This document shows positions 1-10,263 of a stretch of DNA of 10,263 nt, piece after piece. Under the pieces are notes generated by a model that worked only from the letters and a program-made list of their open reading frames with translations, made no database searches and was not told the origin of the DNA. Source of the stretch: a virus. Taxonomy: Duplodnaviria; Heunggongvirae; Uroviricota; Caudoviricetes. Numbering within the stretch: position 1 is the stretch's first letter; the number at the start of each line of letters is the position of its first letter. A program made the position numbers and the translations under genes. The stretch spans positions 1 through 10,263 of IMG/VR virus record IMGVR_UViG_2713897055_000015. One strand, given 5' to 3'.

Positions 1-25
1 AGGCGAATTTCCGCCTTCGGTCATT

Positions 26-106
26 CCTTAATCATCTGCGTAATCATAATGATTATTCAGCCAGCGCAATTTTGCGCTTTGCTTTAAGTTCAACCAGTTA
101 CCGCCA
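26..106. repeat. Copy 1 of an ~80-bp imperfect direct repeat
   Basis: Read directly: 26-106 aligns with 149-238 (CCTTAATCATCTGCGTAA...CATTCAGCCAGCGCAATTTTG(C/A)GCTTTGCTTTAA...GTTACCGCC). Contains near-palindrome AATCATAATGATTA and a short hairpin AGCGC-AATTTT-GCGCT. Confidence 0.7.
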
Positions 107-148
107 GCTTCCCCCAATGGGGGATTGTGGAATAATCAACGGTTTAGG

Positions 149-238
149 CCTTAATCATCTGCGTAAACATAAGTAATCATAATGATCATTCAGCCAGCGC
201 AATTTTGAGCTTTGCTTTAATCTCAGTGAGTTACCGCC
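149..238. repeat. Copy 2 of the ~80-bp direct repeat, with a ~9-bp internal insertion; its end overlaps the stop codon of the 93-aa ORF
   Basis: Read directly; the hairpin present in copy 1 is disrupted here (GCGC to GAGC). Confidence 0.7.
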
Positions 239-512
239 GCAACCGTTCCGGCTTCTTCCAGTGGTACGTGATTTTCTCCTTCTCCCGATACATCTCCACG
301 CGGCGACGGTATGCCAGCAACTCAAGGACTCTGGTTCGTATGTTGCGCATATCCACGCCGTTAAGCTCAATACCATCACGGCGCATCACCTCAGCAACAA
401 CACGCACATAATTTTCAGCGGTCACGCTGTCCGGATGTGTGGCCTGTTCGTCATGCTGCTGGCTGATTCCGGTAACGCGGCGGATTAATCCCAGTAGTTC
501 GGCTTCTGTCAT
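231..512 (-). CDS. Hypothetical protein (93 aa), basic C-terminus, function unknown
   Basis: ORF from the six-frame track; G-rich Shine-Dalgarno-like GGGGG about 5 nt upstream of the ATG at 510-512; protein-like composition. No family recognised by eye. Confidence 0.5.
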   Translation of the reverse strand: MTEAELLGLIRRVTGISQQHDEQATHPDSVTAENYVRVVAEVMRRDGIELNGVDMRNIRTRVLELLAYRRRVEMYREKEKITYHWKKPERLRR

Positions 513-544
513 TGTGCCCCCATCGCTCTGATAGCCTGGTGTCG

Positions 545-612
545 TCGGGTCCTTCCTGGAATTATGGCCCGTTACGGGGCGGCGACCTCACGGTTTTTCG
601 CTATTTATGAGC
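545..612 (+). other. Lambda-type cos site copy 1 (cosQ-like flank, cosN, I2-like), plus-strand orientation
   Basis: 568-589 CCCGTTACGGGGCGGCGACCTC followed by TTTTTCGCTATTTATGA. From memory this is nearly identical to the lambda cosN region, with the 12-nt cohesive-end sequence GGGCGGCGACCT at 577-588. Confidence 0.75.
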
Positions 613-626
613 TTTTTTTAGAGGGA

Positions 627-777
627 GGTTGTTGTTTAATTGTTTGTCATATCCATTTGATAACTAAGTAAAAATAAAGAGCAATACAACAACCTGATAG
701 TGTTTTTTTGATGCTAAAAATAAAAAAATGCTAATTGAATCAAATAGTTTTAAAAAAATACGTGGTTGTTGTATTGC
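627..777. promoter_or_regulatory. AT-rich region with three GGTTGTTGT-type repeats in direct-inverted-direct arrangement (candidate cosB-like terminase-binding R sites)
   Basis: GGTTGTTGTTT at 627-637; GCAATACAACAACC at 681-694, which is the exact reverse complement of GGTTGTTGTATTGC at 764-777. Spacing after cosN resembles the lambda R3-R2-R1 layout but the repeat sequence differs from the lambda R sites as I recall them. Confidence 0.45.
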
Positions 778-806
778 GTATTTGATGGCGTAACAGAAAG
801 TGATTT

Positions 807-1247
807 TTAACTTTGCTGTTCTGTAACGACTGATTGTTCCATGCTGGCACGGCGAACGCTTACGGCATGACGCCACCCAGCCAGAAAGCCGGCCATTTTA
901 TTTCGCGCTTTGCTCACTTCTTCCGGTGAGTAGCCGTAAATCTGTAAACCTTCATCAAATCTATGTTCTGTTTCTTCACTGGAGTACTCGTCACGCTCAG
1001 ATGAAAGCAGCCTGGCAACCATAATTTTTTCCAGCGCACTGGTTTCTACGTGATATCCAATGGCCTCAAGATGGCTTTTACCTGAAGACCAAAGCAATGT
1101 ATGCCCGATGTGATAACCGCCGGACTTTCCGCGATCCGCATTAAGATACGGCATCCCTTGTTTGGTCCATGCGCGAATAGTGGTTCTGTTTACCTTGAAA
1201 TGTTCAGCTATTTCCTGCTGACTTACAAAACAAGCCTTATTAATCAT
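807..1247 (-). CDS. Nu1-like small-terminase-family protein: N-terminal winged-HTH cos-binding domain with a divergent C-terminal region (146 aa)
   Basis: N-terminus MINKACFVSQQEIAEHFKVNRTTIRAWTKQGMPYLNADRGKSGG resembles lambda gpNu1 N-terminus (VNKKQLADIFGASIRTIQNWQEQGMPVLRGGGKG, recalled from memory). SD GAGGT 8 nt upstream of the ATG at 1245-1247. A cos site lies about 90 bp upstream. Confidence 0.7.
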   Translation of the reverse strand: MINKACFVSQQEIAEHFKVNRTTIRAWTKQGMPYLNADRGKSGGYHIGHTLLWSSGKSHLEAIGYHVETSALEKIMVARLLSSERDEYSSEETEHRFDEGLQIYGYSPEEVSKARNKMAGFLAGWRHAVSVRRASMEQSVVTEQQS

Positions 1248-1304
1248 AATGTTACCTCAATTGACTGATTAAATGTTAATCAAGTGGTGGTGGTGTCACC
1301 TTCA

Positions 1305-1390
1305 CGGAAAAACGTCATAAATAGCGAAAACGCGCGAGGTCGCCGCCCCGTAACGGGTCCATATGCCGGAAAGGACCCGTAAAAAAAAGC
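1305..1390 (-). other. Lambda-type cos site copy 2 (cosQ-like flank, cosN, I2-like), minus-strand orientation, directly upstream of the Nu1-like gene
   Basis: Reverse complement of 1305-1390 reads ACGGGTCCTTTCCGG..CCCGTTACGGGGCGGCGACCTCGCGCGTTTTCGCTATTTATGACG. The 12-mer is at 1337-1348 on the complement. About 85% identical to copy 1 over ~70 bp, in inverted orientation. Confidence 0.8.
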
Positions 1391-1404
1391 CGGATTTCTC
1401 CGGC
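1381..1404 (-). terminator. Intrinsic terminator (hairpin GCCGGA-TTTC-TCCGGC followed by U8 on the minus strand) ending the capsid operon
   Basis: Read directly: A8 at 1381-1388 and hairpin at 1389-1404 on the plus strand, giving hairpin plus T-run on the minus strand, 7 bp past the stop of the 137-aa ORF. Confidence 0.75.
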
Positions 1405-1410
1405 CTTGTC

Positions 1411-1824
1411 TCAGATGGTTTTCAGTATGCGCTCGATGTCGCCATCATCGCCCGGGTTTCTGCCGTCGTATGCCATGCCAGCTGAAACGGCTTGCGGGCT
1501 GTGCATGTCCATAAAGTTTTCAAAGGCTGCGGTAAGCTCCGGCGCAACCTTCTGGCGTTCCTGCTCTATGGTCATGCTAAGGATGCTTTTAGCCGTACCA
1601 ACATCGATACAAGGCACGTTTGCCATTGCACGTAACAGCGGCTGATAGTCGTTATGCTCATGAAGCGCCATAATCGCATCAGCGCGCGGCTTGTCCTGCT
1701 CTTCCAGTTTGTTGAGTTGATATACGGCCTCGTAGGTTGATAAACCTCTGTCAGCCATTGCTCGCGCTTCGGCTTTAAATTTACTCGCCAGCGGTAGCGT
1801 CATGATGCTTTCATTCGTTGCCAT
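1411..1824 (-). CDS. Hypothetical protein (137 aa), last gene of the capsid operon; function unknown
   Basis: ORF with protein-like composition, 12 nt downstream of the decoration-protein gene. No confident homology by eye. Confidence 0.65.
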   Translation of the reverse strand: MATNESIMTLPLASKFKAEARAMADRGLSTYEAVYQLNKLEEQDKPRADAIMALHEHNDYQPLLRAMANVPCIDVGTAKSILSMTIEQERQKVAPELTAAFENFMDMHSPQAVSAGMAYDGRNPGDDGDIERILKTI

Positions 1825-1836
1825 CGTTCCCCCTGC

Positions 1837-2172
1837 TTATCGGGCCAGCGGCTGAACGGATACGCCAGAACCCGCAAAGGCGGCGCATTTTTTCGCATCG
1901 GTGTCGACGCTCTCGGGCCAGTTCACGGCGGCGATATTAAAGATCCCCGTCTTGTAGCACTGTGCTGATTTCTGCTTTGACGTGTCCACGGGGTACGAAG
2001 TCAGATAAACAGCCTTTCCGGACGCCTGACCATCCCACGGCTTAAACTCGCCATTGTCCGCCAGCATCAGCGGGGTAAATTCCTGAATGACGCCAGCATC
2101 AGCGGCAAAATGTACCAGCGTCGTGGATACCTGCTGACTGCCTGCAAATAACTCAATGTATGGAGTGTTCAT
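1837..2172 (-). CDS. Head decoration protein, lambda gpD-like (111 aa)
   Basis: Translation shares TPLML, WDG, YK(S/T)G(T/I)F, WPE and AFAG motifs in the same order as lambda gpD (recalled from memory); size matches (~110 aa). Confidence 0.8.
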   Translation of the reverse strand: MNTPYIELFAGSQQVSTTLVHFAADAGVIQEFTPLMLADNGEFKPWDGQASGKAVYLTSYPVDTSKQKSAQCYKTGIFNIAAVNWPESVDTDAKKCAAFAGSGVSVQPLAR

Positions 2173-2183
2173 AGAATCCCCCG

Positions 2184-3239
2184 TTAACCAATTTTGACGG
2201 TAACAAATTTGCGAATGTCTGCCGGCACCGGCTGCGGTGCGCTGTGCGTCTGCACGTACTCAATCGCCGGATCGCCGTCCTCAATCCAGTTTTTCGGGTA
2301 GTACATGTTTTGCGTTGCGCCCGTTCTTACCGCTTCCTGATCCATAATCGCACCATAAGCAACCAGCCCTTTATTGTTGGTGTTGCCCAAGACCAGCAAA
2401 TCAGGCTCAAGGAAATGTTTTTCGGTGCCGTCGCTGTCGGCGTATTTGCCGGAATAGACGATAAGGGCAATATCGCCCAGATAGCCTTTAAAGCTCACCA
2501 CTTCGCCTAGGTTTTTACAGGCCAGTTCTGCGGCGGATTCTGAACCACGGGAAAGATCGTACAGTTCGCGGAATTTTTTAAAGCTGCGTAACGTGCGCCA
2601 TACCTCAGCGCCCATAATCATGACGTTTGCGGGGCAATTGCCCTGATCCGCATAAAGCTCGATATCATAGATTGGATCGTGGGTTTCTTTGTCCTGCTCG
2701 GACCATTTACGGCCTTTGGCCTGCTCTATGATGTTGTTTTCCGGCATCTTCCAGTCGATTTCATAGCGTTCTATGCCTTCGCCCTCAATGATGTTTTTTC
2801 CGGTCGTTACCGCATTTACCGCCAGCCATTCAACACGCGCTTTAATAGCGTTTACCTGGCGGCGCATGTTGCCAGTAATCAGGCGCATACGGCGATAGGT
2901 TGGGTCGTTAAGCTGTGCCGGATCTTCTCCAGCCATGCGCATGATGGTTTTTGTTGGATCGATTTCGTGCTTTGGCTTCATGTAGCCAGGTTTAATCGTG
3001 CTGGTTTCGTACCCTTTATCGCGCTGTACCTGGCTACCAACCATAGGCGAGCAAAACGCTGACATAGTGACTTCTTCGGTGTCCAGGTTATCCAGCATGA
3101 TGTTTTGGGTGTTGAATGTCGCTACTTTCGGGAAAAACAGCGTGGTAAACAGCGGACTAAATTTAAATTCCGCAATATCCCCGCGATTCAGGTACGCAAA
3201 AAGCTGGTTAGTGTTAAGTGCCGTTGCTTTGCCTGCCAT
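2184..3239 (-). CDS. Major capsid protein, lambda gpE family (351 aa)
   Basis: Extended blocks match lambda gpE as recalled: EFKFSPLF..LFF, PGYMKPKHEI, GEDPAQLNDPTYRRMRLI, VSFKGYLGDIALIVYSGKY, YPKNWIEDGDPA. Confidence 0.92.
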   Translation of the reverse strand: MAGKATALNTNQLFAYLNRGDIAEFKFSPLFTTLFFPKVATFNTQNIMLDNLDTEEVTMSAFCSPMVGSQVQRDKGYETSTIKPGYMKPKHEIDPTKTIMRMAGEDPAQLNDPTYRRMRLITGNMRRQVNAIKARVEWLAVNAVTTGKNIIEGEGIERYEIDWKMPENNIIEQAKGRKWSEQDKETHDPIYDIELYADQGNCPANVMIMGAEVWRTLRSFKKFRELYDLSRGSESAAELACKNLGEVVSFKGYLGDIALIVYSGKYADSDGTEKHFLEPDLLVLGNTNNKGLVAYGAIMDQEAVRTGATQNMYYPKNWIEDGDPAIEYVQTHSAPQPVPADIRKFVTVKIG

Positions 3240-3445
3240 TATTCACCCCCATAATTTTTATGCATCCCAAGCGCCGCAAGTAAATAAGAGCGCACAAGTG
3301 AACCTATCGACGGCTCCGGCGTCATCAGCGGATCCAGTCCAGCCGCTACGCCAGCCTCATAGTTTTTTTTGTGGCGCTGCTTGAGCACCTCCACGATTTC
3401 GGGGCTTATGTACACCGAAACACCGCCTTTTTTCTCTTCTGCCAT
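3239..3445 (-). CDS. Hypothetical small protein (68 aa), first gene of the capsid operon, translationally coupled to the capsid gene (TAATG overlap)
   Basis: SD AGAGGA ~11 nt upstream of the ATG at 3443-3445; stop overlaps the capsid gene start by 1 nt. Confidence 0.6.
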   Translation of the reverse strand: MAEEKKGGVSVYISPEIVEVLKQRHKKNYEAGVAAGLDPLMTPEPSIGSLVRSYLLAALGMHKNYGGE

Positions 3446-3484
3446 AGTCAGAAATTCCTCTTTGACTTAAAAAAATCACAACTG

Positions 3485-3512
3485 GATGTTCATCCAGTTA
3501 TGATTATAATCA
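3485..3512. promoter_or_regulatory. Promoter/operator region upstream of the capsid operon: imperfect inverted repeat GGATG-TT-CATCC (3485-3496) and perfect 12-bp palindrome TGATTATAATCA (3501-3512) containing TATAAT on both strands
   Basis: Read directly; lies 40-70 bp upstream of the first capsid-operon ATG. Confidence 0.5.
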
Positions 3513-3608
3513 TGATTGCATTTTGCGCAATAAAATTGAGTTGTGTTGCAAATTATGAAATGATTTACAGCAACAGTAGTCACCATGCTGTTAACCTCGT
3601 AAGCAAAA

Positions 3609-3647
3609 GCCCGATAAGCTTCCTCCTGTACTTATCGGGCTTTTTTT
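3609..3647 (+). terminator. Hairpin (GCCCGATAAG...CTTATCGGGC) followed by T7 on the plus strand; intrinsic terminator for a plus-strand transcript or bidirectional element
   Basis: 10-bp stem, 12-nt loop, seven T at 3641-3647. No annotated plus-strand gene ends here. Confidence 0.5.
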
Positions 3648-3653
3648 GGGTAC

Positions 3654-3676
3654 AAAAAGCCGGATTTTCTCCGGCC
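3654..3676 (-). terminator. Intrinsic terminator of the SSB operon (hairpin GCCGGATTTTCTCCGGC, U5 on the minus strand); near-identical to the terminator at 1381-1404
   Basis: Read directly; lies 8 bp past the SSB stop codon. Confidence 0.7.
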
Positions 3677-3683
3677 TGTGCGT

Positions 3684-4094
3684 TCAGAACGGAATATCAT
3701 CACCGTAGGGGTCATCGTCTCCCGCTGGTGGCTGATTACCCTGTGCGCCTGTGGTTTTGCGTCTGTTCCCGCCAGGACGTGCCGCACGGGCACTGATTAC
3801 GCTGTCTGCAATAACCTGATAACCCTGCCGCGTTTCCCCGTTCTGTCCGGTCCACTGGCTTATCTGCATCACGCCAGATATGCTGGCAACGTCGCCTTTT
3901 TGATGTTTAGCCAGGAAGTCGGCCTGCTTACCAAATGCCATCACCGATAGCCATAACGTAGCCGTTCCGTCATCTGCCTGGCTGCACGGAAGGGGGACCG
4001 CCATACGCGCCAGCGTCATCGGTGTGCCCTTGCTGGTCTGTTTTACCTGCGGGTCGTCCACCAGCCGCCCGTAAGCGGCTATCTGTGCTGTCAT
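3684..4094 (-). CDS. ssb: Single-stranded DNA-binding protein (SSB family, 136 aa)
   Basis: OB-fold-like N-terminal region resembling E. coli SSB, Gly/Gln-rich linker, and the characteristic acidic C-terminal tail ending DDIPF. Confidence 0.88.
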   Translation of the reverse strand: MTAQIAAYGRLVDDPQVKQTSKGTPMTLARMAVPLPCSQADDGTATLWLSVMAFGKQADFLAKHQKGDVASISGVMQISQWTGQNGETRQGYQVIADSVISARAARPGGNRRKTTGAQGNQPPAGDDDPYGDDIPF

Positions 4095-4405
4095 GATTCC
4101 ACCTCTCCGGTTTTAACGTTGATGGTTGTTACCTGTTCCGCTTCGGCAATCTCCCGTTCTGTCAGCGTGGCAAAGTTTGCCGCCGCTGTGGTCATGAATG
4201 CGCTTATCAGGTCGGGATGTTCCTTCGCGTATCCTTCCCGCGTGTGGCGGTCTATCGTTCTGATTGCCACCTTTAAGGTATGCTCAGTCATGTCTAACGC
4301 TTTATATTTTGGCTCTGTTCTGTCTCTGCGAATTTTGGTCATTTGTCGCCCCTGGTTCATGTTTTCGGCTGGCATGTTTGTTAAGTGATTTTGATGTATG
4401 CGCAT
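4091..4405 (-). CDS. Hypothetical protein (104 aa) translationally coupled to ssb (ATGA overlap)
   Basis: SD GAGGGGGTGA upstream of the ATG at 4403-4405; stop overlaps the ssb start. Function not recognised. Confidence 0.6.
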   Translation of the reverse strand: MRIHQNHLTNMPAENMNQGRQMTKIRRDRTEPKYKALDMTEHTLKVAIRTIDRHTREGYAKEHPDLISAFMTTAAANFATLTEREIAEAEQVTTINVKTGEVES

Positions 4406-4452
4406 TTATTTTCACCCCCTCGTTTAAAAAGTTTTTAGTTGTGCCTCCCCCC

Positions 4453-4675
4453 CTCTACCCATCTACCCGAATGCTCATCATGTCAGTAATGGCGCGGCTT
4501 TCAGCGGGTAGATAGCTTTTTGGGCTCCTCTACCTGCCGTCTACCCTGCTACCTGAAACTGATAAAATCAGGTAGAAGAGGTAGAGAGCTTTTATTAGCC
4601 TTCTACCTAGCCCTCTACCCACTTATCATGTTGAATAATATGCGTTTATTTCATTCAGGTAGATGGGGTAGAGGG
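4453..4675. repeat. Iteron array (about 12 copies of a TCTACC-core octamer in both orientations) with AT-rich stretches; putative origin of replication
   Basis: CTCTACCC 4453-4460, ATCTACCC 4461-4468, GGGTAGATA 4506-4514, CTCTACCT 4528-4535, TCTACCCT 4540-4547, CAGGTAGAAG 4569-4578, GGTAGAGA 4580-4587, TTCTACCT 4601-4608, CTCTACCC 4613-4620, GGTAGAT 4658-4664, GGGTAGAGGG 4666-4675. Lies immediately 3' of, and overlapping, the primase gene end. Confidence 0.7.
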
Positions 4676-6438
4676 CTTTTACAAAAAATTATAAAAAACG
4701 CGTCGCAATCGTCTGTTGTAATTGCGTTGGTCTGCGTTACTCCCTTAACTTTTCGCGTAATATATTCATGCCCGTAAACTTTCGCCGCTGGCTTCATGGC
4801 CTTGCTGAACTCAGCCACGTTTAGCGGTTTGCTCCTGCCTGCGTATGCCATAAACGCCAGATAGACGCGGTAAAGGCTGTTCCTGGTCGTGTACTTCACT
4901 GAATCGCCACCGCCGCCCATCATCAGGCCGCGTGCTTCCTCCAGAAAATTCAGGAACTGGCAAAACTCAATAACCGGATCCGTCTGTTGCTTTATTGCCA
5001 GAGCTTCATCACCGTCACGCTGTTCCAGTAGTAAAGCCCGTGCCTTCTCAGGGTCGGTAAAGTTCGCCAGCAATCGGCGGATAATGACAGGGATTTCAGC
5101 CGCAATCTTTTCCGGTAGCTCCCTGTCTTTTTCGGCCTCACTGACGATATTGTCGAAACGGAAAATTACGCGACGACGTGACACACCTCCGGCCCGTTCG
5201 GTGAATATCATCGGGTTATTGTTGGTAGCCAGCACCACCGCCCTGATTACCGCCGTAAAACGCTTCTCATATTTCGGGTTAATTTCCACGGGGTCGCCGC
5301 CCGTGATTTTCTTGATGCCCGTTCCTTCGCCTGTATATTTCGGCTGGTCAGCCAGGACGATAAGACGACTCCCGACAACCTGCGCACGTCCACCAGCATC
5401 ATCAAGCGATGTCATTTCAGCGCTTACCGTGTTCTGTTTCCCTGCCAGAAGGCTGGCTATGTGTGTGAATGTACTTTTACCGCTCCCGCCGTCTCCGGTG
5501 GCCTCAATAAACATCTGCCAGTCGTACCGGTTCGCCATAATCATGTACAGCGCGGCACATATACGCATCATCTTGCGCGGGTCTTTTCCGGCTGCGTGCT
5601 CAAGCCATTTATGAAAGTTTGGCGCGTTGTCGCGGATATTCTCCCCTGGTGCTGGTGGCGTGTACTCAATGCCGTTGTGCGTGGTGATCCAGTTCTCCGG
5701 CGTGTGCGGGGAAAATTCCCCCGTTTTCAGGTCAAGCGCACCATTGGCGAACGGCAGCAAATCGCCGGACGGCTCGCCCATTGGTTCGGCAATAACTTTT
5801 AACGCTTCCACGGCGTTATTGATTACGCGCTTGCTGAAAGTGGCCCTGTGCTCTGAATAGATCGCCACCATTTCGCGGCTAAGTTCCATTGTGCTGACCG
5901 GACACCATACCCCGCCGCGCCATACGTGAACGATTTCACTTTCCGGATGCACACAAACGCCATCAAATCGACCAGCAAGCATCTGTGCGCGCTCACTGTC
6001 TGCCATTTGTGCCAGTTGCGTATTTTTCTGCTCCGGCATGGTAAGCCCTGCGGCAATATTTTCACGCTCAGCATTCAGATAGCGCCGCCAGTTTTCACAC
6101 TTCTGGACGTGCATTCCTTCGTGGTAAAAATTTGCGTCCTGAATATCTGCCGCCGCCAGCTTCTGACCAATCTTTTTGGTCTCCACTAAATCCAGTTCTC
6201 CGGCCTGGTACAGCCTTACGCGCTTTTTCCCATCCGGAACAATTTTCAGCGCATCAAGTTCGGCAAGCTGCTTTGGCCCAAGCCACACAGGCGGCACATT
6301 ATCGCCGGATGCGGGGCCATCCTGCTCCTGCCATTGTTTCGCGTGCGACCAGGCATCACTACCCGCAAAGATAATTACCTCTGTGTCTTTGTGTTTTATT
6401 CCGCGTGGCTGTTTTTTTACGTTCGGTGCCAGTTTCAT
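4651..6438 (-). CDS. Primase-helicase of the P4 alpha / D5 family (595 aa) with a P-loop NTPase domain
   Basis: Walker A motif GDGGSGKST within a region typical of phage/plasmid primase P4-family C-terminal domains; position (upstream of iterons, downstream of immunity-type genes) matches satellite replication genes. The final ~17 codons are encoded by iteron sequence. Confidence 0.88.
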   Translation of the reverse strand: MKLAPNVKKQPRGIKHKDTEVIIFAGSDAWSHAKQWQEQDGPASGDNVPPVWLGPKQLAELDALKIVPDGKKRVRLYQAGELDLVETKKIGQKLAAADIQDANFYHEGMHVQKCENWRRYLNAERENIAAGLTMPEQKNTQLAQMADSERAQMLAGRFDGVCVHPESEIVHVWRGGVWCPVSTMELSREMVAIYSEHRATFSKRVINNAVEALKVIAEPMGEPSGDLLPFANGALDLKTGEFSPHTPENWITTHNGIEYTPPAPGENIRDNAPNFHKWLEHAAGKDPRKMMRICAALYMIMANRYDWQMFIEATGDGGSGKSTFTHIASLLAGKQNTVSAEMTSLDDAGGRAQVVGSRLIVLADQPKYTGEGTGIKKITGGDPVEINPKYEKRFTAVIRAVVLATNNNPMIFTERAGGVSRRRVIFRFDNIVSEAEKDRELPEKIAAEIPVIIRRLLANFTDPEKARALLLEQRDGDEALAIKQQTDPVIEFCQFLNFLEEARGLMMGGGGDSVKYTTRNSLYRVYLAFMAYAGRSKPLNVAEFSKAMKPAAKVYGHEYITRKVKGVTQTNAITTDDCDAFFIIFCKSPLPHLPE

Positions 6439-6734
6439 TTTTTACCCCTGAATACGTTAAGCATCTTTTTTATTTCCTGAATATTGGCGCGTGCTTTCTC
6501 CCTGCTGGTTGGTTTACTGCGGGGCGCTGCCTGTACCAGAGAAAAATCACGATCGAACTGATAAACAGGCATAACGCAGTCATATTCGTAGCCTTCACGG
6601 CGGTAAGTTACGCGCCGTTCCTCCACGCCTTTAATCGTTACCGTGCCGCCGTACTGGTCGCGGTAAATATCCCCGCGCATGAATTTAGTGCGAGTTTTGC
6701 CACTGGCAGTTAAGCCAGAATATTTAAGTTTCAT
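6435..6734 (-). CDS. Small protein (99 aa), possibly DUF4222-like, translationally coupled to the primase gene (ATGA overlap)
   Basis: Motif RRVTYRREGYEYDCV recalls DUF4222-type proteins from P4-like elements (from memory, unverified); SD GGAG upstream. Confidence 0.55.
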   Translation of the reverse strand: MKLKYSGLTASGKTRTKFMRGDIYRDQYGGTVTIKGVEERRVTYRREGYEYDCVMPVYQFDRDFSLVQAAPRSKPTSREKARANIQEIKKMLNVFRGKK

Positions 6735-6739
6735 TATTT

Positions 6740-6967
6740 TTATTCTCCGGTGTGGGGCGCGTTATTATTTTCGTGAATTGCCATCGCCTTATCCAGTTCA
6801 TCAATTACAGGCGATAGTAATGTCTGAACGGCGGCAAGCATTAATGACGAAGATTCTTCTCCAGCTTCCGTTGCTTCAATTAATTTAATTAACAACGCAT
6901 TCATTTCACGCGCTTTAATTAATGCGTTTTCAGAATGAATAAGAACATCATAGGGTATTTTATTCAT
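6740..6967 (-). CDS. Hypothetical small protein (75 aa), overlapping the upstream Icd-like gene by 8 nt
   Basis: ORF with protein-like composition in operon context. Function unknown. Confidence 0.55.
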   Translation of the reverse strand: MNKIPYDVLIHSENALIKAREMNALLIKLIEATEAGEESSSLMLAAVQTLLSPVIDELDKAMAIHENNNAPHTGE

Positions 6968-7130
6968 GACTCACCCCCTGACGAATACGGGCGACAAAAA
7001 TCAGATGTGCGTGCGGCAGCTGGGCGCGTGCTTCGCGTTCAGTGGCAGCGGTAACGGTGTAAATATCAATGCTGCTGTGGTGGCACTGCATAAAGCGCCA
7101 GACAAAGTAAGGGCGTGCGGATACAGCCAT
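6960..7130 (-). CDS. Icd-like small protein, copy 2 (56 aa; MAVSARPYFVWRF...ARIRQGVSHE)
   Basis: Start chosen at the internal ATG (7128-7130), preceded by AGGAG at 8-nt spacing. The C-terminal 50 aa are paralogous to copy 1. The long N-terminal extension in the ORF track (168 aa) is not supported. Confidence 0.6.
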   Translation of the reverse strand: MAVSARPYFVWRFMQCHHSSIDIYTVTAATEREARAQLPHAHLIFVARIRQGVSHE

Positions 7131-7194
7131 GTGAAAGGCTCCTACAGTAATTTTAAGGAGTCTCGCTACTACGCTGCTAAACGGGGTGGCGAGA

Positions 7195-7256
7195 CGTAAC
7201 AGGGTTAGCAGACTGGCACTGTAGGAACCAGCGAGCGCAAAGGCTCCCCCGTTACG
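7195..7256 (-). ncRNA. Candidate CI/C4-like immunity RNA carrying a seqB-like element
   Basis: On the minus strand CGUAACGGG (from plus 7248-7256) can pair with CCCUGUUACG (from plus 7195-7204), closing a ~60-nt element that contains GGUUCCUACAGUGCCAGUCUGCUAACC. That inner sequence is complementary to an upstream stretch (7321-7360) and to the SD region of Icd-like copy 2 (7138-7150). Confidence 0.4.
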
Positions 7257-7416
7257 CCCCGCCATAATGCGGGTATGGGTAGGCTTACGGACACAAAAAA
7301 ACCGCATATCGGAATATAAGCGGCTGTCCGCTACAGTATTCAGGCTGCTAAACCCGGTCGCCATGTGGGCGACGGGGGAAGCATACAGCCCCGTTATAAT
7401 TTTTTGCAAGCGGTTT

Positions 7417-7614
7417 TTACGCATGATGTGACCCCTGACGAATACGGGCGGCGAATACAGCAACACAACCGGACGGGCAACGGCTACGCGCTTCGCGTTC
7501 CGTCCAGGCGGTTACGTGGATGATTTGATGGTCTGACGCGCCAAAGGCAATAAAACGCCACACAAAGGCGGTTTGTGTGTGCGCTAGTCGTGGGGTATGC
7601 TGTCTTACAGCCAT
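7417..7614 (-). CDS. Icd-like small protein, copy 1 (65 aa; MAVRQHTPRLAHTQTAFVWRF...ARIRQGSHHA)
   Basis: Start chosen at the ATG (7612-7614) preceded by AGGAG at 8-nt spacing, same start context as copy 2 (AGGAG-N8-ATGGCTGTA). The ORF-track extension to 7737 is unsupported. Confidence 0.55.
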   Translation of the reverse strand: MAVRQHTPRLAHTQTAFVWRFIAFGASDHQIIHVTAWTEREARSRCPSGCVAVFAARIRQGSHHA

Positions 7615-7689
7615 AATCGTTACTCCTGTTAACGGTTTGGTTAGACGCCCTGCATGTGTGCCACCACTGCGGGGCGTTGTCGTTTGGTG

Positions 7690-7799
7690 CATCGCACCAC
7701 TCATTTTTAACCTATCAGTAAGTGAATCGCACTTCAAGCCTTTCTCTGAAATTTTTTTTTGTGTATACTGAATCGCACCAACTTAGAGAGGATTCAGTA
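7690..7799. promoter_or_regulatory. Divergent promoter/operator region with repeated (TG)AATCGCAC motifs and a T9 tract
   Basis: ATCGCAC at 7692-7698, GTGAATCGCAC at 7722-7732, TGAATCGCACC at 7770-7780; TATACT -10-like hexamer at 7764-7769 preceded by TG, upstream of the RHH gene; the minus-strand immunity-type operon starts in the opposite direction. Confidence 0.5.
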
Positions 7800-7979
7800 A
7801 TGGCAACAGGTTCAACAAATAATAAGTCGCAACAGTTAAATGCCAGATTCCCGCATGATGTTGTTGCAGACTTAGAAAAAAATTTAGATGAAGGTGAAAG
7901 CAAGGCGCAATTTATAGTTACTGCCGTTAAAGGCGAGATCAAACGCCGCCAGCGCCGCAAGGCCAAAGAATCAGAATAA
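7800..7979 (+). CDS. Small ribbon-helix-helix-like DNA-binding protein (59 aa)
   Basis: Start at the ATG (7800-7802) with SD GAGAGGA. Sequence pattern QLNARFPHDVVADLEKNLDE..FIVTAVKGEI fits a beta-strand/helix/helix (CopG/Arc-like) layout; basic C-terminus. The upstream extension in the ORF track depends on a GTG and crosses the promoter. Confidence 0.6.
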   Translation: MATGSTNNKSQQLNARFPHDVVADLEKNLDEGESKAQFIVTAVKGEIKRRQRRKAKESE

Positions 7980-8036
7980 TCACTATCAGCGCCGTGGTGT
8001 GAGGTACTACGGCGCATTGCTTTACAGGGCAGTATC

Positions 8037-8264
8037 ATGACCAACAACACACTATTACCAATACAAGACACGCAAACCCAAGATGATGAAATCATCCGGC
8101 AAAGGCAGTCAGAAGCCTGCGCCAGAGTTGAGGAAGAACTAACCAGAACAAAAATACCACCACCAGCGCCGCGCTTAATGCCACCAGAAAAATTTGCCCT
8201 TGAAGATTTTGTCGAGAAATACCCACGGCGGTTAAAAGCCACTAAAAACCGACCGCCTGGCTGA
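8037..8264 (+). CDS. Hypothetical small protein (75 aa), acidic N-terminal half and Pro-rich segment
   Basis: ORF downstream of the RHH gene after a hairpin (GCGCCGT..ACGGCGC, 7991-8017); weak SD. Function unknown. Confidence 0.45.
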   Translation: MTNNTLLPIQDTQTQDDEIIRQRQSEACARVEEELTRTKIPPPAPRLMPPEKFALEDFVEKYPRRLKATKNRPPG

Positions 8265-8420
8265 TAGCCTTGTCCACCAGCTACGGCGGTGCTAAGATCG
8301 AAAGCTGCATAAGTCATGAAATAAACTCCTTAGCGGTGCATACGCGCCGCTTCTTTCTTCACGAACAACCGCGAACAACTACAAACAAAAACACGGACGG
8401 AATTTAAAGAATGAATATTC

Positions 8421-8615
8421 TTAATTGACGCGTTCGCGGTTTTTGACCCACGCCACAACCTCAGACTTAACCCAGCCAACCGAACGACCGCCAAGACTGA
8501 TACGGGAGGGAAAGCGGCCTTGTTTTTCCATCTCGTAACGAGTTGTGCGGCAAACGCCTGTTAGCTCTCTGCATTCTTTTTCGCGGATTACACGATCTTC
8601 ATTTATTTCGCGCAT
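8421..8615 (-). CDS. alpA: AlpA-family phage transcriptional regulator / excisionase-like protein (64 aa)
   Basis: Small HTH protein with the typical AlpA-family pattern (..LTGVCRTTRYEMEKQGRFP..I.LG.RSVGW...EV..W...) located next to a P4-type integrase. Confidence 0.85.
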   Translation of the reverse strand: MREINEDRVIREKECRELTGVCRTTRYEMEKQGRFPSRISLGGRSVGWVKSEVVAWVKNRERVN

Positions 8616-9024
8616 AAAAAGCCCTACATAAAATTACGTATAGAAATTTTTGTTTCGCTGTGGATATACGGAAAGAGATTACTTCTTAGCTTTTCTTACC
8701 TCTTAAATTGATGGCGTAACCTTGCCAAAAGCTATGCTCGACAAGGTTCGCAAGGGTTCGTTGTTGTTCATAAAATCGTTGCACACCAGGAAAGACAATT
8801 CAACATTAAAATTCCCTCTACAGTGAGGAATAATAAAAAAAACAAATTAAAACAGTCACATAAAAGCATGCACTTTGAAATAAAGGAAAATATTAAAACT
8901 CAAGTAGACAATCGCTGTTTTCAAATTTTTTCAATACTTGACACATATAAATCGTCGATATTTGCCGATATTCGACGATTTATTTTAGAGGGCCATTTTT
9001 CGCAAGAAAAACAGCCGTAATTTG

Positions 9025-10263
9025 TCAAGAATTTTGAGAGTAAATTCGCGGGGTCATAACAACGATTTTTTCATCATTGTTCTGGAGAAGCTCGAGACGC
9101 TCAACCCATAGATTAAGAGCGTCACGTTTTGCATCGAGATAACGGGAGTGATTATAGACTCGTTGCACTCCTGGCAACTGGTGCGCGGTTAGCTGCTCCA
9201 CTACATGAGGATCCACGCCTAAATCGTTCAGCATCGTTGTAAACGTGTGCCGGATGTCGTGCAACGTCCAGGGGGCTTGATTAATACGTCTGTGTGCCGT
9301 TCTTCCGTACTCTGATACGGATGATTGCCCTTTCAGTTCTCCGAGCAATAATCCCGTGTGCCTGTTCTGCTCCACCAGCTTCGTTACGAACGGCAAGATC
9401 GCTTCCGGTATTGGCCTGAATATTGCTACCTTCGTTTTGCTATGTTCTTTCGGCACGGTCCAGAGCATTTCTTTAAAATCCCATTCCTGGACCTCAGAGC
9501 GTCTTAGCTCAGTGGTACGACATCCGAAGACAATCAGGAGGCGAATCAGGGCGCTGTAGTACGGTGGGTAAATTTTTTCATCCAGGGCGCGGAGTAATTC
9601 CCCAAGCTCCTTGTTTGTTAGTACGCGCTCGCTTATTTCTGCTTTTTTCCCAACATCACCTACAACCATATCATCTAGAACGTTGGTAATTGCGTAGCGT
9701 CGTTTGCGGCAGTACTTAAGCGCCTGCTTGCATACCTGTAACAAAAATCCTGCTGATACCGGATTACGCTTAGCAAGCTGATCAAAACAGGTCAGCCAGT
9801 GGCGTAGCTCGCATTTTTCCAGCGGCATAGCACCAATATGGCTGATTATGTGTGTATTGATCCGGCTTTTCAGAGATTCGTAATCTGTGCGCTTTTCCTT
9901 CGCGTACGATTCAAGCCAGTAAGTGAGCGCTTCCTTAACCGTAACAGGTGATAACGCTTCCTGTACGGTGTGATTAAGCTCATGGCGTGGATTTTTACCC
10001 TCAGCAAGCCAGGCGCGACACTGCGACGCTTTTTCCCTGGCTGCTTTCAGGCTCAAATCTGGATAATTTCCCAGCCTCAGACGTTCAGGGGCTACCTTCC
10101 TGCCTGTTCCGGCCCTGTAAGTGAAATACCAGGTTAACAGGCCATTGGTTGAATGCCTTACGCTAAGGTTGCCACCATCATTAAAAAAGGTGTTTTTTGT
10201 GGTTGGTGATCCGCTTAATTTTCGTAAAAGAGTGTCGCTAAGTCTATGAATTGCCCTGCTCAT
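9025..10263 (-). CDS. int: Tyrosine site-specific integrase, P4-type (412 aa; start codon at the window edge, N-terminus possibly a few residues longer)
   Basis: N-terminal arm-binding-type region (LSD..L..L.....K....DGG.L.V.....G...W.F.Y) and C-terminal catalytic signature HDIRHT ... VYNHSRY, typical of P4/CP4-57-type integrases. Confidence 0.95.
   Translation of the reverse strand: MSRAIHRLSDTLLRKLSGSPTTKNTFFNDGGNLSVRHSTNGLLTWYFTYRAGTGRKVAPERLRLGNYPDLSLKAAREKASQCRAWLAEGKNPRHELNHTVQEALSPVTVKEALTYWLESYAKEKRTDYESLKSRINTHIISHIGAMPLEKCELRHWLTCFDQLAKRNPVSAGFLLQVCKQALKYCRKRRYAITNVLDDMVVGDVGKKAEISERVLTNKELGELLRALDEKIYPPYYSALIRLLIVFGCRTTELRRSEVQEWDFKEMLWTVPKEHSKTKVAIFRPIPEAILPFVTKLVEQNRHTGLLLGELKGQSSVSEYGRTAHRRINQAPWTLHDIRHTFTTMLNDLGVDPHVVEQLTAHQLPGVQRVYNHSRYLDAKRDALNLWVERLELLQNNDEKIVVMTPRIYSQNS

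Follow-up and report, generated by a model that had tools for sequence, protein, structure and literature searches.

A further EcCICFT073-type cos phage-inducible chromosomal island at the cspD-clpS site of Escherichia coli

Introduction

EcCICFT073 is a phage-inducible chromosomal island (PICI) of Escherichia coli CFT073 for which helper-dependent induction, packaging, high-frequency transfer and helper interference have been demonstrated (Fillol-Salom et al. 2018, ISME J, PMC6092414; Fillol-Salom et al. 2019, Mol Cell, PMC6739421). Both of its cos sites are functional, and its genes c1499 and c1500 have been described as coding for a putative capsid protein and a head decoration protein, respectively (Fillol-Salom et al. 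2018, PMC6092414). Its prey are lambda-like phages, whose packaging enzyme it diverts to its own DNA. Packaging of the island needs Rpp (redirecting phage packaging protein), which binds the small terminase (TerS) of the helper phage and blocks phage packaging (Fillol-Salom et al. 2019, PMC6739421). Here we analysed 10,263 nucleotides of viral DNA, positions 1 to 10,263 of the IMG/VR virus record IMGVR_UViG_2713897055_000015, and refer to this whole stretch as the window. We are highly confident that it represents an intact, ordinary Gram-negative cos-type PICI of the EcCICFT073 family, covering nearly the whole island (10,263 of 10,932 bp) and located between cspD and clpS of the E. coli chromosome.

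Gram-negative PICIs and P4-like satellites overlap in gene content. The PICI core comprises five components, including capsid morphogenesis and TerS, and 97% of PICIs with all five come from E. coli; integrase, AlpA and primase are common to both, so that a P4-like element is counted as an incomplete PICI, and the integrase and AlpA/Vis therefore do not discriminate between them (De Sousa et al. 2023, PMC10085698). PICIs share with P4 only distant homology in AlpA, Pri-Rep and Int (Fillol-Salom et al. 2018, PMC6092414). A major capsid gene is carried by 21 of 29 reference Gram-negative PICIs, and the Rfam C4 and isrK profiles match several of these islands as relatives of the P4 CI RNA and seqA (2023 study of helper-embedded satellites, NAR Genomics and Bioinformatics, PMC10111431).

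Results and discussion

Gene content and order match those of EcCICFT073

The window contains 17 credible open reading frames (ORFs), 15 of them on the minus strand. In tblastn searches against EcCICFT073, fetched from E. coli CFT073, 15 of the 17 had homologues and their order was conserved. Both elements read int-alpA-(divergent YlcI)-icd-small ORFs-DUF4222-pri-ori-p85-SSB-p68-MCP-Dec-p137-cos-rpp-cos-p93, where SSB is the single-stranded DNA-binding protein, MCP the major capsid protein and Dec the head decoration protein. Identities in the early and replication genes were 77% for int, 59% for AlpA, 57% for YlcI/YnfO, 38-41% for the Icd-like ORFs, 37% for p75, 84% for DUF4222, 89% for Pri, 84% for p104 and 94% for SSB, and in the capsid and packaging genes 68% for p68, 94% for MCP, 96% for Dec, 96% for p137, 95% for Rpp and 83% for p93. 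At the nucleotide level, the capsid and packaging block is 92% identical over 2.9 kb.

All five PICI core components of SatelliteFinder were found, namely an integrase, an alpA-type regulator, a primase-replicase, a capsid gene and a TerS-like packaging protein (component list from PMC10085698). The layout is that of a PICI as well: the integrase is accompanied by att repeats, an AlpA-type regulator lies downstream of int, pri has its origin 3' of the gene, and a capsid-type gene and Rpp with cos sites are present. The island size of 10,932 bp fits the PICI range of about 10-20 kb. The island is an uncharacterised further member of the EcCICFT073-type cos PICIs, not a novel satellite type.

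The initial annotation had held that the element fits neither the P4-like nor the classical PICI gene set, and had seen in it a new hybrid satellite family, in which a P4-like backbone has its sid-delta-psu genes swapped for a lambdoid cos and capsid module. Its list of parts (int, AlpA, Icd-like ORFs with a CI-like RNA, a P4-alpha-family helicase, an iteron origin, cosN and gpE/gpD homologues) was recovered in full by our family and sequence searches, and it was right that P4-like parts are joined to lambdoid cos and gpE/gpD genes, with P4 homologues or counterparts for the integrase, AlpA, the immunity RNA and the alpha-family helicase. Only three P4 proteins have homologues in the window: the integrase (23%, E=6e-16), Vis/AlpA (42%, E=5e-17) and alpha (40%, residues 326-774). 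P4 also shares the CI-type RNA with its seqA/a1b1 leader, and the NCBIfam model TIGR01613, "primase, P4 family", is matched by Pri just at its cutoff (109.1 against 108.7). [quoted passage not shown] The N-terminal primase domain of alpha also has no counterpart in the window Pri. Furthermore, the combination of parts is already the defining layout of EcCICFT073-type PICIs, the homology between PICIs and P4 is only a distant one in AlpA, Pri-Rep and Int (PMC6092414), and C4 and isrK matches occur in several Gram-negative PICIs (PMC10111431). We consider a new hybrid family most improbable, since the island agrees with EcCICFT073 gene by gene, with 15 of 17 ORFs in conserved order, and the proposal is thereby in effect refuted. 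In view of the PICI literature of 2018-2023, all the modules that had seemed surprising were already documented for EcCICFT073-type PICIs.

The genes are tightly packed. At icd2/p75, DUF4222/pri, p104/ssb and p68/MCP, the start codon of one gene overlaps the stop codon of the gene before it (1-8 nt), an arrangement that fits translational coupling, as had been suggested. Contrary to the initial annotation, the modules are not all co-oriented, with the small ORFs at 7800-7979 and 8037-8264 lying on the opposite strand. As for dedicated terminators, a scan for consensus promoters and terminators was no richer than in shuffled sequences (14 against 11.8 and 14 against 13.4), so that their overall number is not above chance, but individual hairpins after p137 and SSB are noteworthy.

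A single att pair encloses the island

The integrase gene forms one edge of the window:

9025-10263, minus strand: tyrosine integrase, 412 aa (Pfam Phage_integrase and Arm-DNA-bind_3); the window edge is its start codon.

An E. coli draft contig, L007 among our fetched sequences (GCA_000749525.1, JNNK01000035.1), contains the whole window with 100% identity and extends past both edges. The cspD-clpS site of E. coli K-12 is empty of the island. Positions 1-1828 and 1808-2001 of this K-12 region align to L007 8006-9833 and 20745-20938 with 99.4% and 98.5% identity, respectively. The two alignments overlap at K-12 1808-1828, and this 21-bp segment (ATAGATGATAGTTATCTATCA) is therefore found at both ends of a 10,932-bp insertion, imperfectly duplicated at L007 9813-9833 and 20745-20765. 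Both attL and attR were found by this comparison. The repeats TGTTCG and GGTGTAGTTAAT are present on both island arms, as expected for candidate arm sites of the integrase. The window stops short of the true island ends by 167 bp on the int side and by 502 bp on the far side. It is one element with a single att pair.

In the far-side flank, the interval from the 93-aa ORF described below to attR holds a 60-aa ORF (L007 20240-20422) that matched no family. It starts at window positions 1-24 and runs past the left edge, and is therefore cut by the window. A further 340 bp before attR contain palindromic hairpins (for example CCCGATATGGGAATCCCCATATCGGGG) and arm-type repeats.

The window integrase is 77% identical to that of EcCICFT073 and 23% to that of P4. 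The identical integrase (100%) was found at cspD-clpS in six fetched contigs (L005-L010) with differing downstream modules, and islands of one architecture occupy cspD-clpS, tqsA and roxA-phoQ, three separate places in the chromosome. Some portion of the window occurs in 1,877 of 5,426 complete E. coli genomes.

These data bear on whether the window could instead be a decayed lambdoid prophage remnant, or two unrelated neighbours consisting of an integrase island and a fragment of phage head genes. The gpE, gpD and cos features are those of a lambdoid head and packaging region, and the family is highly mosaic, one integrase being found with varying replication and capsid modules. However, the single pair of att repeats surrounds the entire 10.9 kb at a site that is empty in K-12, and the whole gene set moves together at three integration sites. 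No portal, protease, large terminase (TerL), tail or holin/lysis family was matched by any of the 17 window ORFs in Pfam, PHROG and NCBIfam scans. All eight genes tested are under purifying selection, with ratios of nonsynonymous to synonymous substitution (dN/dS) of 0.06-0.37 and no frameshifts. In addition, the MCPs of lambda and of the helper phage share 43-45% identity with that of the window, as opposed to 93-100% among fetched islands, which indicates that it belongs to the island lineage and is not a recent phage fragment. We regard a remnant or a chance pair of elements as exceedingly unlikely, and both were rejected. The intact att repeats, the arm-type repeats and the selection on every gene tested agree with the earlier view that this is a functional element and not decay debris.

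The packaging region carries Rpp between two inverted cos sites

The features at the left end of the window are:

1284-1407, minus strand: terminator hairpin (1386-1407) followed by cos1, consisting of a cosQ-like element, cosN (1337-1348) and a PICI-type cosB with R3-PICI at about 1284-1301 (exact cosN; comparison with EcCICFT073 and lambda).
807-1247, minus strand: Rpp, RppA type, 146 aa (PDB 6HLK/6HN7 RppC, E=5.5e-32).
545-700, plus strand: cos2, inverted, with a different cosB and leader (cosN 12-mer at 577-588).
231-512, minus strand: conserved 93-aa ORF downstream of cos2 (phrog_1561, E=8e-57; 83% identical to EcCICFT073; dN/dS 0.30).

The cosN 12-mer GGGCGGCGACCT is present as two exact, inverted copies, at 1337-1348 on the minus strand and 577-588 on the plus strand, which flank rpp. 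The reported identity of cosN with that of lambda was therefore correct, but there are two inverted sites and not one. Around cosN, 22 of 22 nt of cos1 match lambda; identity is 85% from +13 to +45 and falls to 21%, that of unrelated sequence, beyond +46. As far as the proposed R3-PICI, the cosB of cos1 does not differ from that of EcCICFT073 cos1; the shared sequence includes ACCACCACC at +55 to +63. R3-PICI has been proposed as the Rpp-binding element of the PICI cosB (PMC9026076).

The gene between the cos sites, which had been annotated as Nu1-like, encodes Rpp and not a small terminase. Besides matching the RppC structures, the protein is 95% identical to the product of the 144-aa gene between both EcCICFT073 cos sites, which has the published length of RppA (c1503). 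Residues L51 and F121 of RppA, both mutated in structure-function work on that protein (PMC6739421), are conserved. Fragments of lambda Nu1 scored only E ~0.1-0.2 against the window protein in the PDB search, and likeness to Nu1 is limited to the N-terminal winged helix-turn-helix (wHTH) domain (33% over 49 aa).

An inverted pair of cosN sites flanking rpp or terS was seen in every fetched family member that spans the region, including EcCICFT073. Within the window, cos1 carries an RppA-type cosB and the cosB and leader of cos2 differ from it. Taken in reverse orientation, window 563-697 (cos2 with about 110 bp of leader) shows 77% identity to the cos-leader segment in front of the Nu1-type terS in the sister island L001 (7323-7458). 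In sister islands with a Nu1-family terS, the second cos site itself has a near-perfect lambda R3. Matches to L001 cover window 1-610 and 1309-7685 and not the stretch between. The DNA between the two cos sites has the look of a cassette that can be swapped or inverted, with breakpoints in the conserved cosQ-cosN sequence. One possibility is that the inverted cos2, with its other type of cosB, allows packaging by a second terminase specificity, such as that of a Nu1-type TerS encoded by a sister island.

Downstream of the 93-aa ORF lies an imperfect tandem duplication of about 133 bp (26-238) that takes in the last codons of this ORF and contains the repeats D1 (66 nt, 89% identity) and D6. 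Each copy has a small GC hairpin, AGCGCAAAATTGCGCT, and the palindrome AATCATAATGATT (2 copies against 0.03 expected). Considered as RNA, the duplication had no Rfam match and a weak fold z-score of -2.2.

A conserved capsid module without the genes of a capsid-forming island

Four genes make up the capsid operon:

3239-3445, minus strand: small ORF, 68 aa, first of the capsid operon (phrog_3255; 68% identical to its EcCICFT073 counterpart).
2184-3239, minus strand: gpE-type MCP, 351 aa, orthologue of c1499 (Pfam Phage_cap_E, 171 bits).
1837-2172, minus strand: gpD-type Dec, 111 aa, orthologue of c1500 (Pfam HDPD, 65.6 bits).
1411-1824, minus strand: p137, 137 aa, with a C-terminus like that of the lambdoid gpC/Nu3 protease-scaffold (phrog_53).

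The gpE and gpD homologues named in the initial annotation are thus present, and sid, delta and psu are not. The MCP is 43% identical to lambda E, 45% to the MCP of the CFT073 helper phage, 94% to that of EcCICFT073 and 93-100% to those of the fetched islands, and Dec is 36% identical to lambda D and 96% to its EcCICFT073 counterpart. The 137-aa protein aligns to positions 495-567 of 583 in phrog_53 (E=5.5e-8), and its C-terminus is 31% identical (E=3e-8) to the extreme C-terminus, residues 416-498, of the S49 peptidase/scaffold of the CFT073 phage. Its BLASTP match to lambda Nu3 is marginal (E=0.05), and the link to a scaffold C-terminus therefore rests on PHROG 53 and the S49 peptidase. From gene order we infer that p137 holds the c1501 position.

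Pairwise dN/dS values against four sister islands were 0.10-0.15 for MCP, 0.06-0.10 for Dec and 0.21-0.37 for p137, and the 2-kb module was found, at a coverage of >=80%, in 590 of the 5,426 complete E. coli genomes (about 11%). The genes of the capsid module are clearly kept by selection, and the gpE-like, gpD-like and Nu3-C-terminus-like genes are conserved cargo of the family. Deletion of the capsid, decoration and scaffold-like genes of EcCICFT073 was without phenotype.

Since the island encodes an MCP, Dec and, in p137, a scaffold-like C-terminus, it could be thought to be a capsid-forming PICI (cf-PICI), which makes its own heads and steals only tails. This we find scarcely credible and have rejected: neither portal, prohead protease, head-tail adaptor and connector nor TerL/HNH was found by the Pfam, PHROG and NCBIfam scans, and an island of 10.9 kb leaves no unassigned space for such genes. 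A weaker version is that MCP, Dec and p137 form a working capsid-shell module that co-assembles with the portal and protease of lambdoid helpers beyond those tried on EcCICFT073, yielding island-specific and possibly smaller heads, or poisoned helper heads. We think this unlikely, though less so than a true cf-PICI; if it were the case, the module would place the EcCICFT073 family between classical PICIs and cf-PICIs. The role of these strongly conserved genes is a question for the whole family and not for this window alone.

Replication module

The replication genes and the origin lie upstream of the capsid operon:

4651-6438, minus strand: Pri/Rep initiator-helicase, 595 aa (Pfam D5_N, DUF5906 and Pox_D5; NCBIfam TIGR01613).
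4454-4672, unstranded: iteron-type origin directly 3' of pri (11 GGTAGA hexamers on both strands; repeats D4, I2 and I3).
4091-4405, minus strand: small ORF, 83-104 aa, whose end overlaps the ssb start by 4 nt (phrog_1231; 84% identical to its EcCICFT073 counterpart).
3684-4094, minus strand: SSB, 136 aa (Pfam SSB, 56.4 bits; 94% identical to EcCICFT073 SSB).

Pri is 89% identical to its EcCICFT073 counterpart and 40% identical to P4 alpha, over alpha residues 326-774 only. All 11 copies of GGTAGA in the window fall within 4454-4672, whereas 2.4 would be expected window-wide and none of 200 shuffled sequences reached 11. The position of this putative origin agrees with that of the mapped PICI origin (PMC6092414).

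Early region with a C4-type RNA

Between the integrase and pri we found the following features:

8421-8615, minus strand: AlpA-family regulator, 64 aa (Pfam PF05930, 58.9 bits).
8037-8264, plus strand: small ORF, 75 aa (an ORF that is an annotated coding sequence in sister islands).
7800-7979, plus strand: YlcI/YnfO-family small protein, divergent from the main operon (NCBIfam NF041551, 62.2 bits, cutoff 30).
7417-7614, minus strand: Icd-like ORF 1, 65 aa (NCBIfam NF033153, 62.8 bits, cutoff 25; labelled Icd-like in relatives).
7295-7386, minus strand: target-type leader, equivalent of P1 a1/b1 and P4 seqA, with an isrK-like terminator hairpin (Rfam c4-a1b1 and isrK).
7182-7269, minus strand: C4/CI-type immunity antisense RNA (Rfam RF01695, 71.5 bits, gathering score 45, full length 1-87).
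6960-7133, minus strand: Icd-like ORF 2 (icd2), 57 aa (NCBIfam NF033153, 55.1 bits, cutoff 25).
6740-6967, minus strand: small ORF (p75), 75 aa, overlapping the icd2 stop (phrog_2196; 37% identical to its EcCICFT073 counterpart).
6435-6734, minus strand: DUF4222 protein, 99 aa, whose end overlaps the pri start by 4 nt (Pfam PF13973, 84.3 bits; 84% identical to EcCICFT073).

AlpA is 59% identical to EcCICFT073 AlpA, whose role has been described (PMC6092414), and 42% to P4 Vis; by homology, it would be the helper-responsive activator of the island. The divergent YlcI/YnfO-family ORF is 57% identical to its EcCICFT073 equivalent. The ORF at 8037-8264 had no family match in Pfam, PHROG or NCBIfam; it is absent from EcCICFT073 and 92% identical in the sister islands L001 and L002. 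Sequence patterns resembling ribbon-helix-helix proteins were noted by eye in the 68-aa ORF (3239-3445) and the YlcI/YnfO ORF (7800-7979), and the two could be regulators of the late and early operons.

The RNA module is genuinely P4-like. The P4 genome matches the identical three Rfam models in identical order, with 74.9 bits for C4, 60.8 for isrK and 44.1 for a1b1, compared with 71.5, 35.7 and 45.5 in the window; the window c4-a1b1 match (E=4e-9) lies 1.2 bits below the gathering score of 46.7. A 10-mer, GUUUAGCAGC, is found in the a1b1 leader and again at 7173-7182, directly 3' of the C4 RNA and upstream of the icd2 ribosome-binding site (AGGAG). This site lies just 3' of the second target-type repeat, and the icd2 ATG is at 7133. 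Part of GUUUAGCAGC is complementary to CUGCUAA in a segment of the C4 RNA that is predicted to be unpaired. The predicted module thus matches the layout of P4 CI and P1 C4, with a structured RNA of ~87 nt, GUUUAGCAGC on both sides and an Icd-like ORF following it. In this island, the C4 RNA probably provides an additional, P4-style immunity that acts on the icd2-pri operon.

A long ORF at 6960-7466 spans the C4 RNA gene; it has 168 aa in the ORF list and 154 aa in database annotations, where it is called Icd-like. Only its last 57 codons match the Icd-like model, and Icd-like calls of 154-168 aa, including those in RefSeq relatives, are probably over-annotation.

The C4 RNA is present in the sister island L001 and the module was found in the island of strain W24, and it is absent from EcCICFT073. 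It is therefore one of several swappable cassettes of the early region.

A proposed life cycle

Our combined findings and the work on related elements suggest the following life cycle. The tyrosine integrase would keep the island at an att site with 21-bp imperfect repeats and arm-type repeats, as seen by comparison with the empty K-12 site. In the quiescent state, the C4/CI antisense RNA, produced from the early leader, would pair with the flanking target repeats and silence the icd2-DUF4222-pri operon, as the Rfam matches and P4 and P1 biology suggest. A lambdoid helper would then induce alpA, and AlpA would activate the operon, leading to excision by Int and to replication, as in the EcCICFT073 experiments. 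Pri, an SF3 helicase of the P4-alpha family, would together with SSB fire the GGTAGA iteron origin, whose position 3' of pri is seen in the window, and give rise to concatemers. From RppA and RppC genetics and structures, Rpp would bind the DNA-binding domain of the helper small terminase, thus blocking recognition of the phage cosB and retargeting the terminase to the cosB of cos1.

Finally, multimers of the island would enter helper-sized heads. Lambda packages DNA of 75-105% of its genome length. By this rule a tetramer is favoured: four copies (43.7 kb, about 90% of lambda length) would fit the packaging window, and a trimer (32.8 kb) or a pentamer (54.7 kb) would fall outside it.

Several points weigh against the view that the island works as an ordinary EcCICFT073-type PICI. 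Each mechanistic step is carried over by homology from EcCICFT073, P4 or P1. EcCICFT073 has neither the C4 RNA module nor the 75-aa ORF (8037-8264), and regulation may therefore differ from that of the model island. Furthermore, the generic duplex energy between the C4 RNA and its putative targets was not beyond that of shuffled controls (z = -0.02 and -1.2), any GC-rich sequence pairing similarly. Since this comparison is uninformative, the target assignment rests on the Rfam c4-a1b1 and isrK matches and the shared GUUUAGCAGC motif, and antisense immunity is a step that we infer.

Comparison with known systems

As a classification the result matters little: this is one more EcCICFT073-type PICI, from a family that a large share of E. 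coli genomes carry, and existing satellite finders would detect such an element. Two further aspects are of wider use. For the family, it can be asked whether those Gram-negative PICIs that carry a P4-type antisense RNA have in it their missing master repressor. In addition, the island is a useful example of mosaicism, in which one integrase is combined with at least three types of replicase, two types of capsid module, either Rpp or a true TerS, and an early region of the C4-RNA or the Ash type.

Compared with lambda, the island resembles the head and packaging region, with an identical cosN, similar cosQ and I2, gpE-type (43%) and gpD-type (36%) genes, an Rpp wHTH that is 33% identical to the DNA-binding domain of Nu1, and a p137 C-terminus like that of gpC/Nu3. 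However, its cos1 has no lambda cosB R sites, and TerL, portal, protease, FI/FII and tail genes are missing. The gene order is E-D-scaffold-like in the island and C/Nu3-D-E in lambda, and Rpp does not have the TerL-binding C-terminus of Nu1 (PMC9026076).

With P4 the island shares a CI-type RNA with an upstream target leader, Vis/AlpA, the C-terminal helicase domain of alpha, a tyrosine integrase, an iteron-type origin and a size of ~11 kb. It differs in that sid, delta, psu, epsilon, gop, beta, cII and the alpha N-terminal primase domain are missing, its cos is of the lambda type and not of the P2/P4 type, and it carries rpp and gpE/gpD-type genes. The helper would be expected to be lambdoid and not P2-like.

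The closest agreement is with EcCICFT073. Both islands have an RppA-type Rpp between two inverted cos sites, an identical cosB at cos1, a p68-MCP-Dec-p137 operon (68-96% amino acid identity), pri followed by the origin, p85 and SSB, an alpA gene and a divergent YlcI/YnfO gene. They differ in the integrase (77% identical) and the att site, which is cspD-clpS for the window and next to roxA/phoQ in CFT073. In the early region, the window has the C4/CI RNA between two Icd-like ORFs, whereas EcCICFT073 has one Icd-like ORF and four small ORFs, with no C4 match. The window also has no PerC-family gene, has a cosB and leader of another type at cos2, and has the extra 75-aa ORF at 8037-8264.

The E. 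coli sister islands that sit at tqsA and cspD-clpS (such as that of strain W24, NZ_CP141591.1; L001 and L005-L010) share a common backbone with the window, with 96-100% nucleotide identity over large blocks, but their modules are shuffled. Rpp is replaced by a true Nu1-family TerS (180 aa) in some, and the D5_N Pri by DUF927 or AAA_25 replicases in others; in one island a ClpP-capsid fusion takes the place of gpE/gpD, and in one Phage_ASH takes that of the C4 module. Within L005-L010, int and alpA are 100% identical at cspD-clpS and the downstream content is highly varied. The replicase is of the D5_N/DUF5906, DUF927 (710 aa) or AAA_25 (469 aa) type, the packaging protein is Rpp (146 aa) or a Phage_Nu1 TerS (180 aa), the capsid module is gpE/gpD or a 629-aa ClpP-protease/Phage_capsid_4 fusion, the early region holds a C4/Icd cassette or a Phage_ASH gene, and a PerC gene is variably present. 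Identical int and alpA genes next to such divergent modules point to rapid modular exchange within a lineage that uses one att site.

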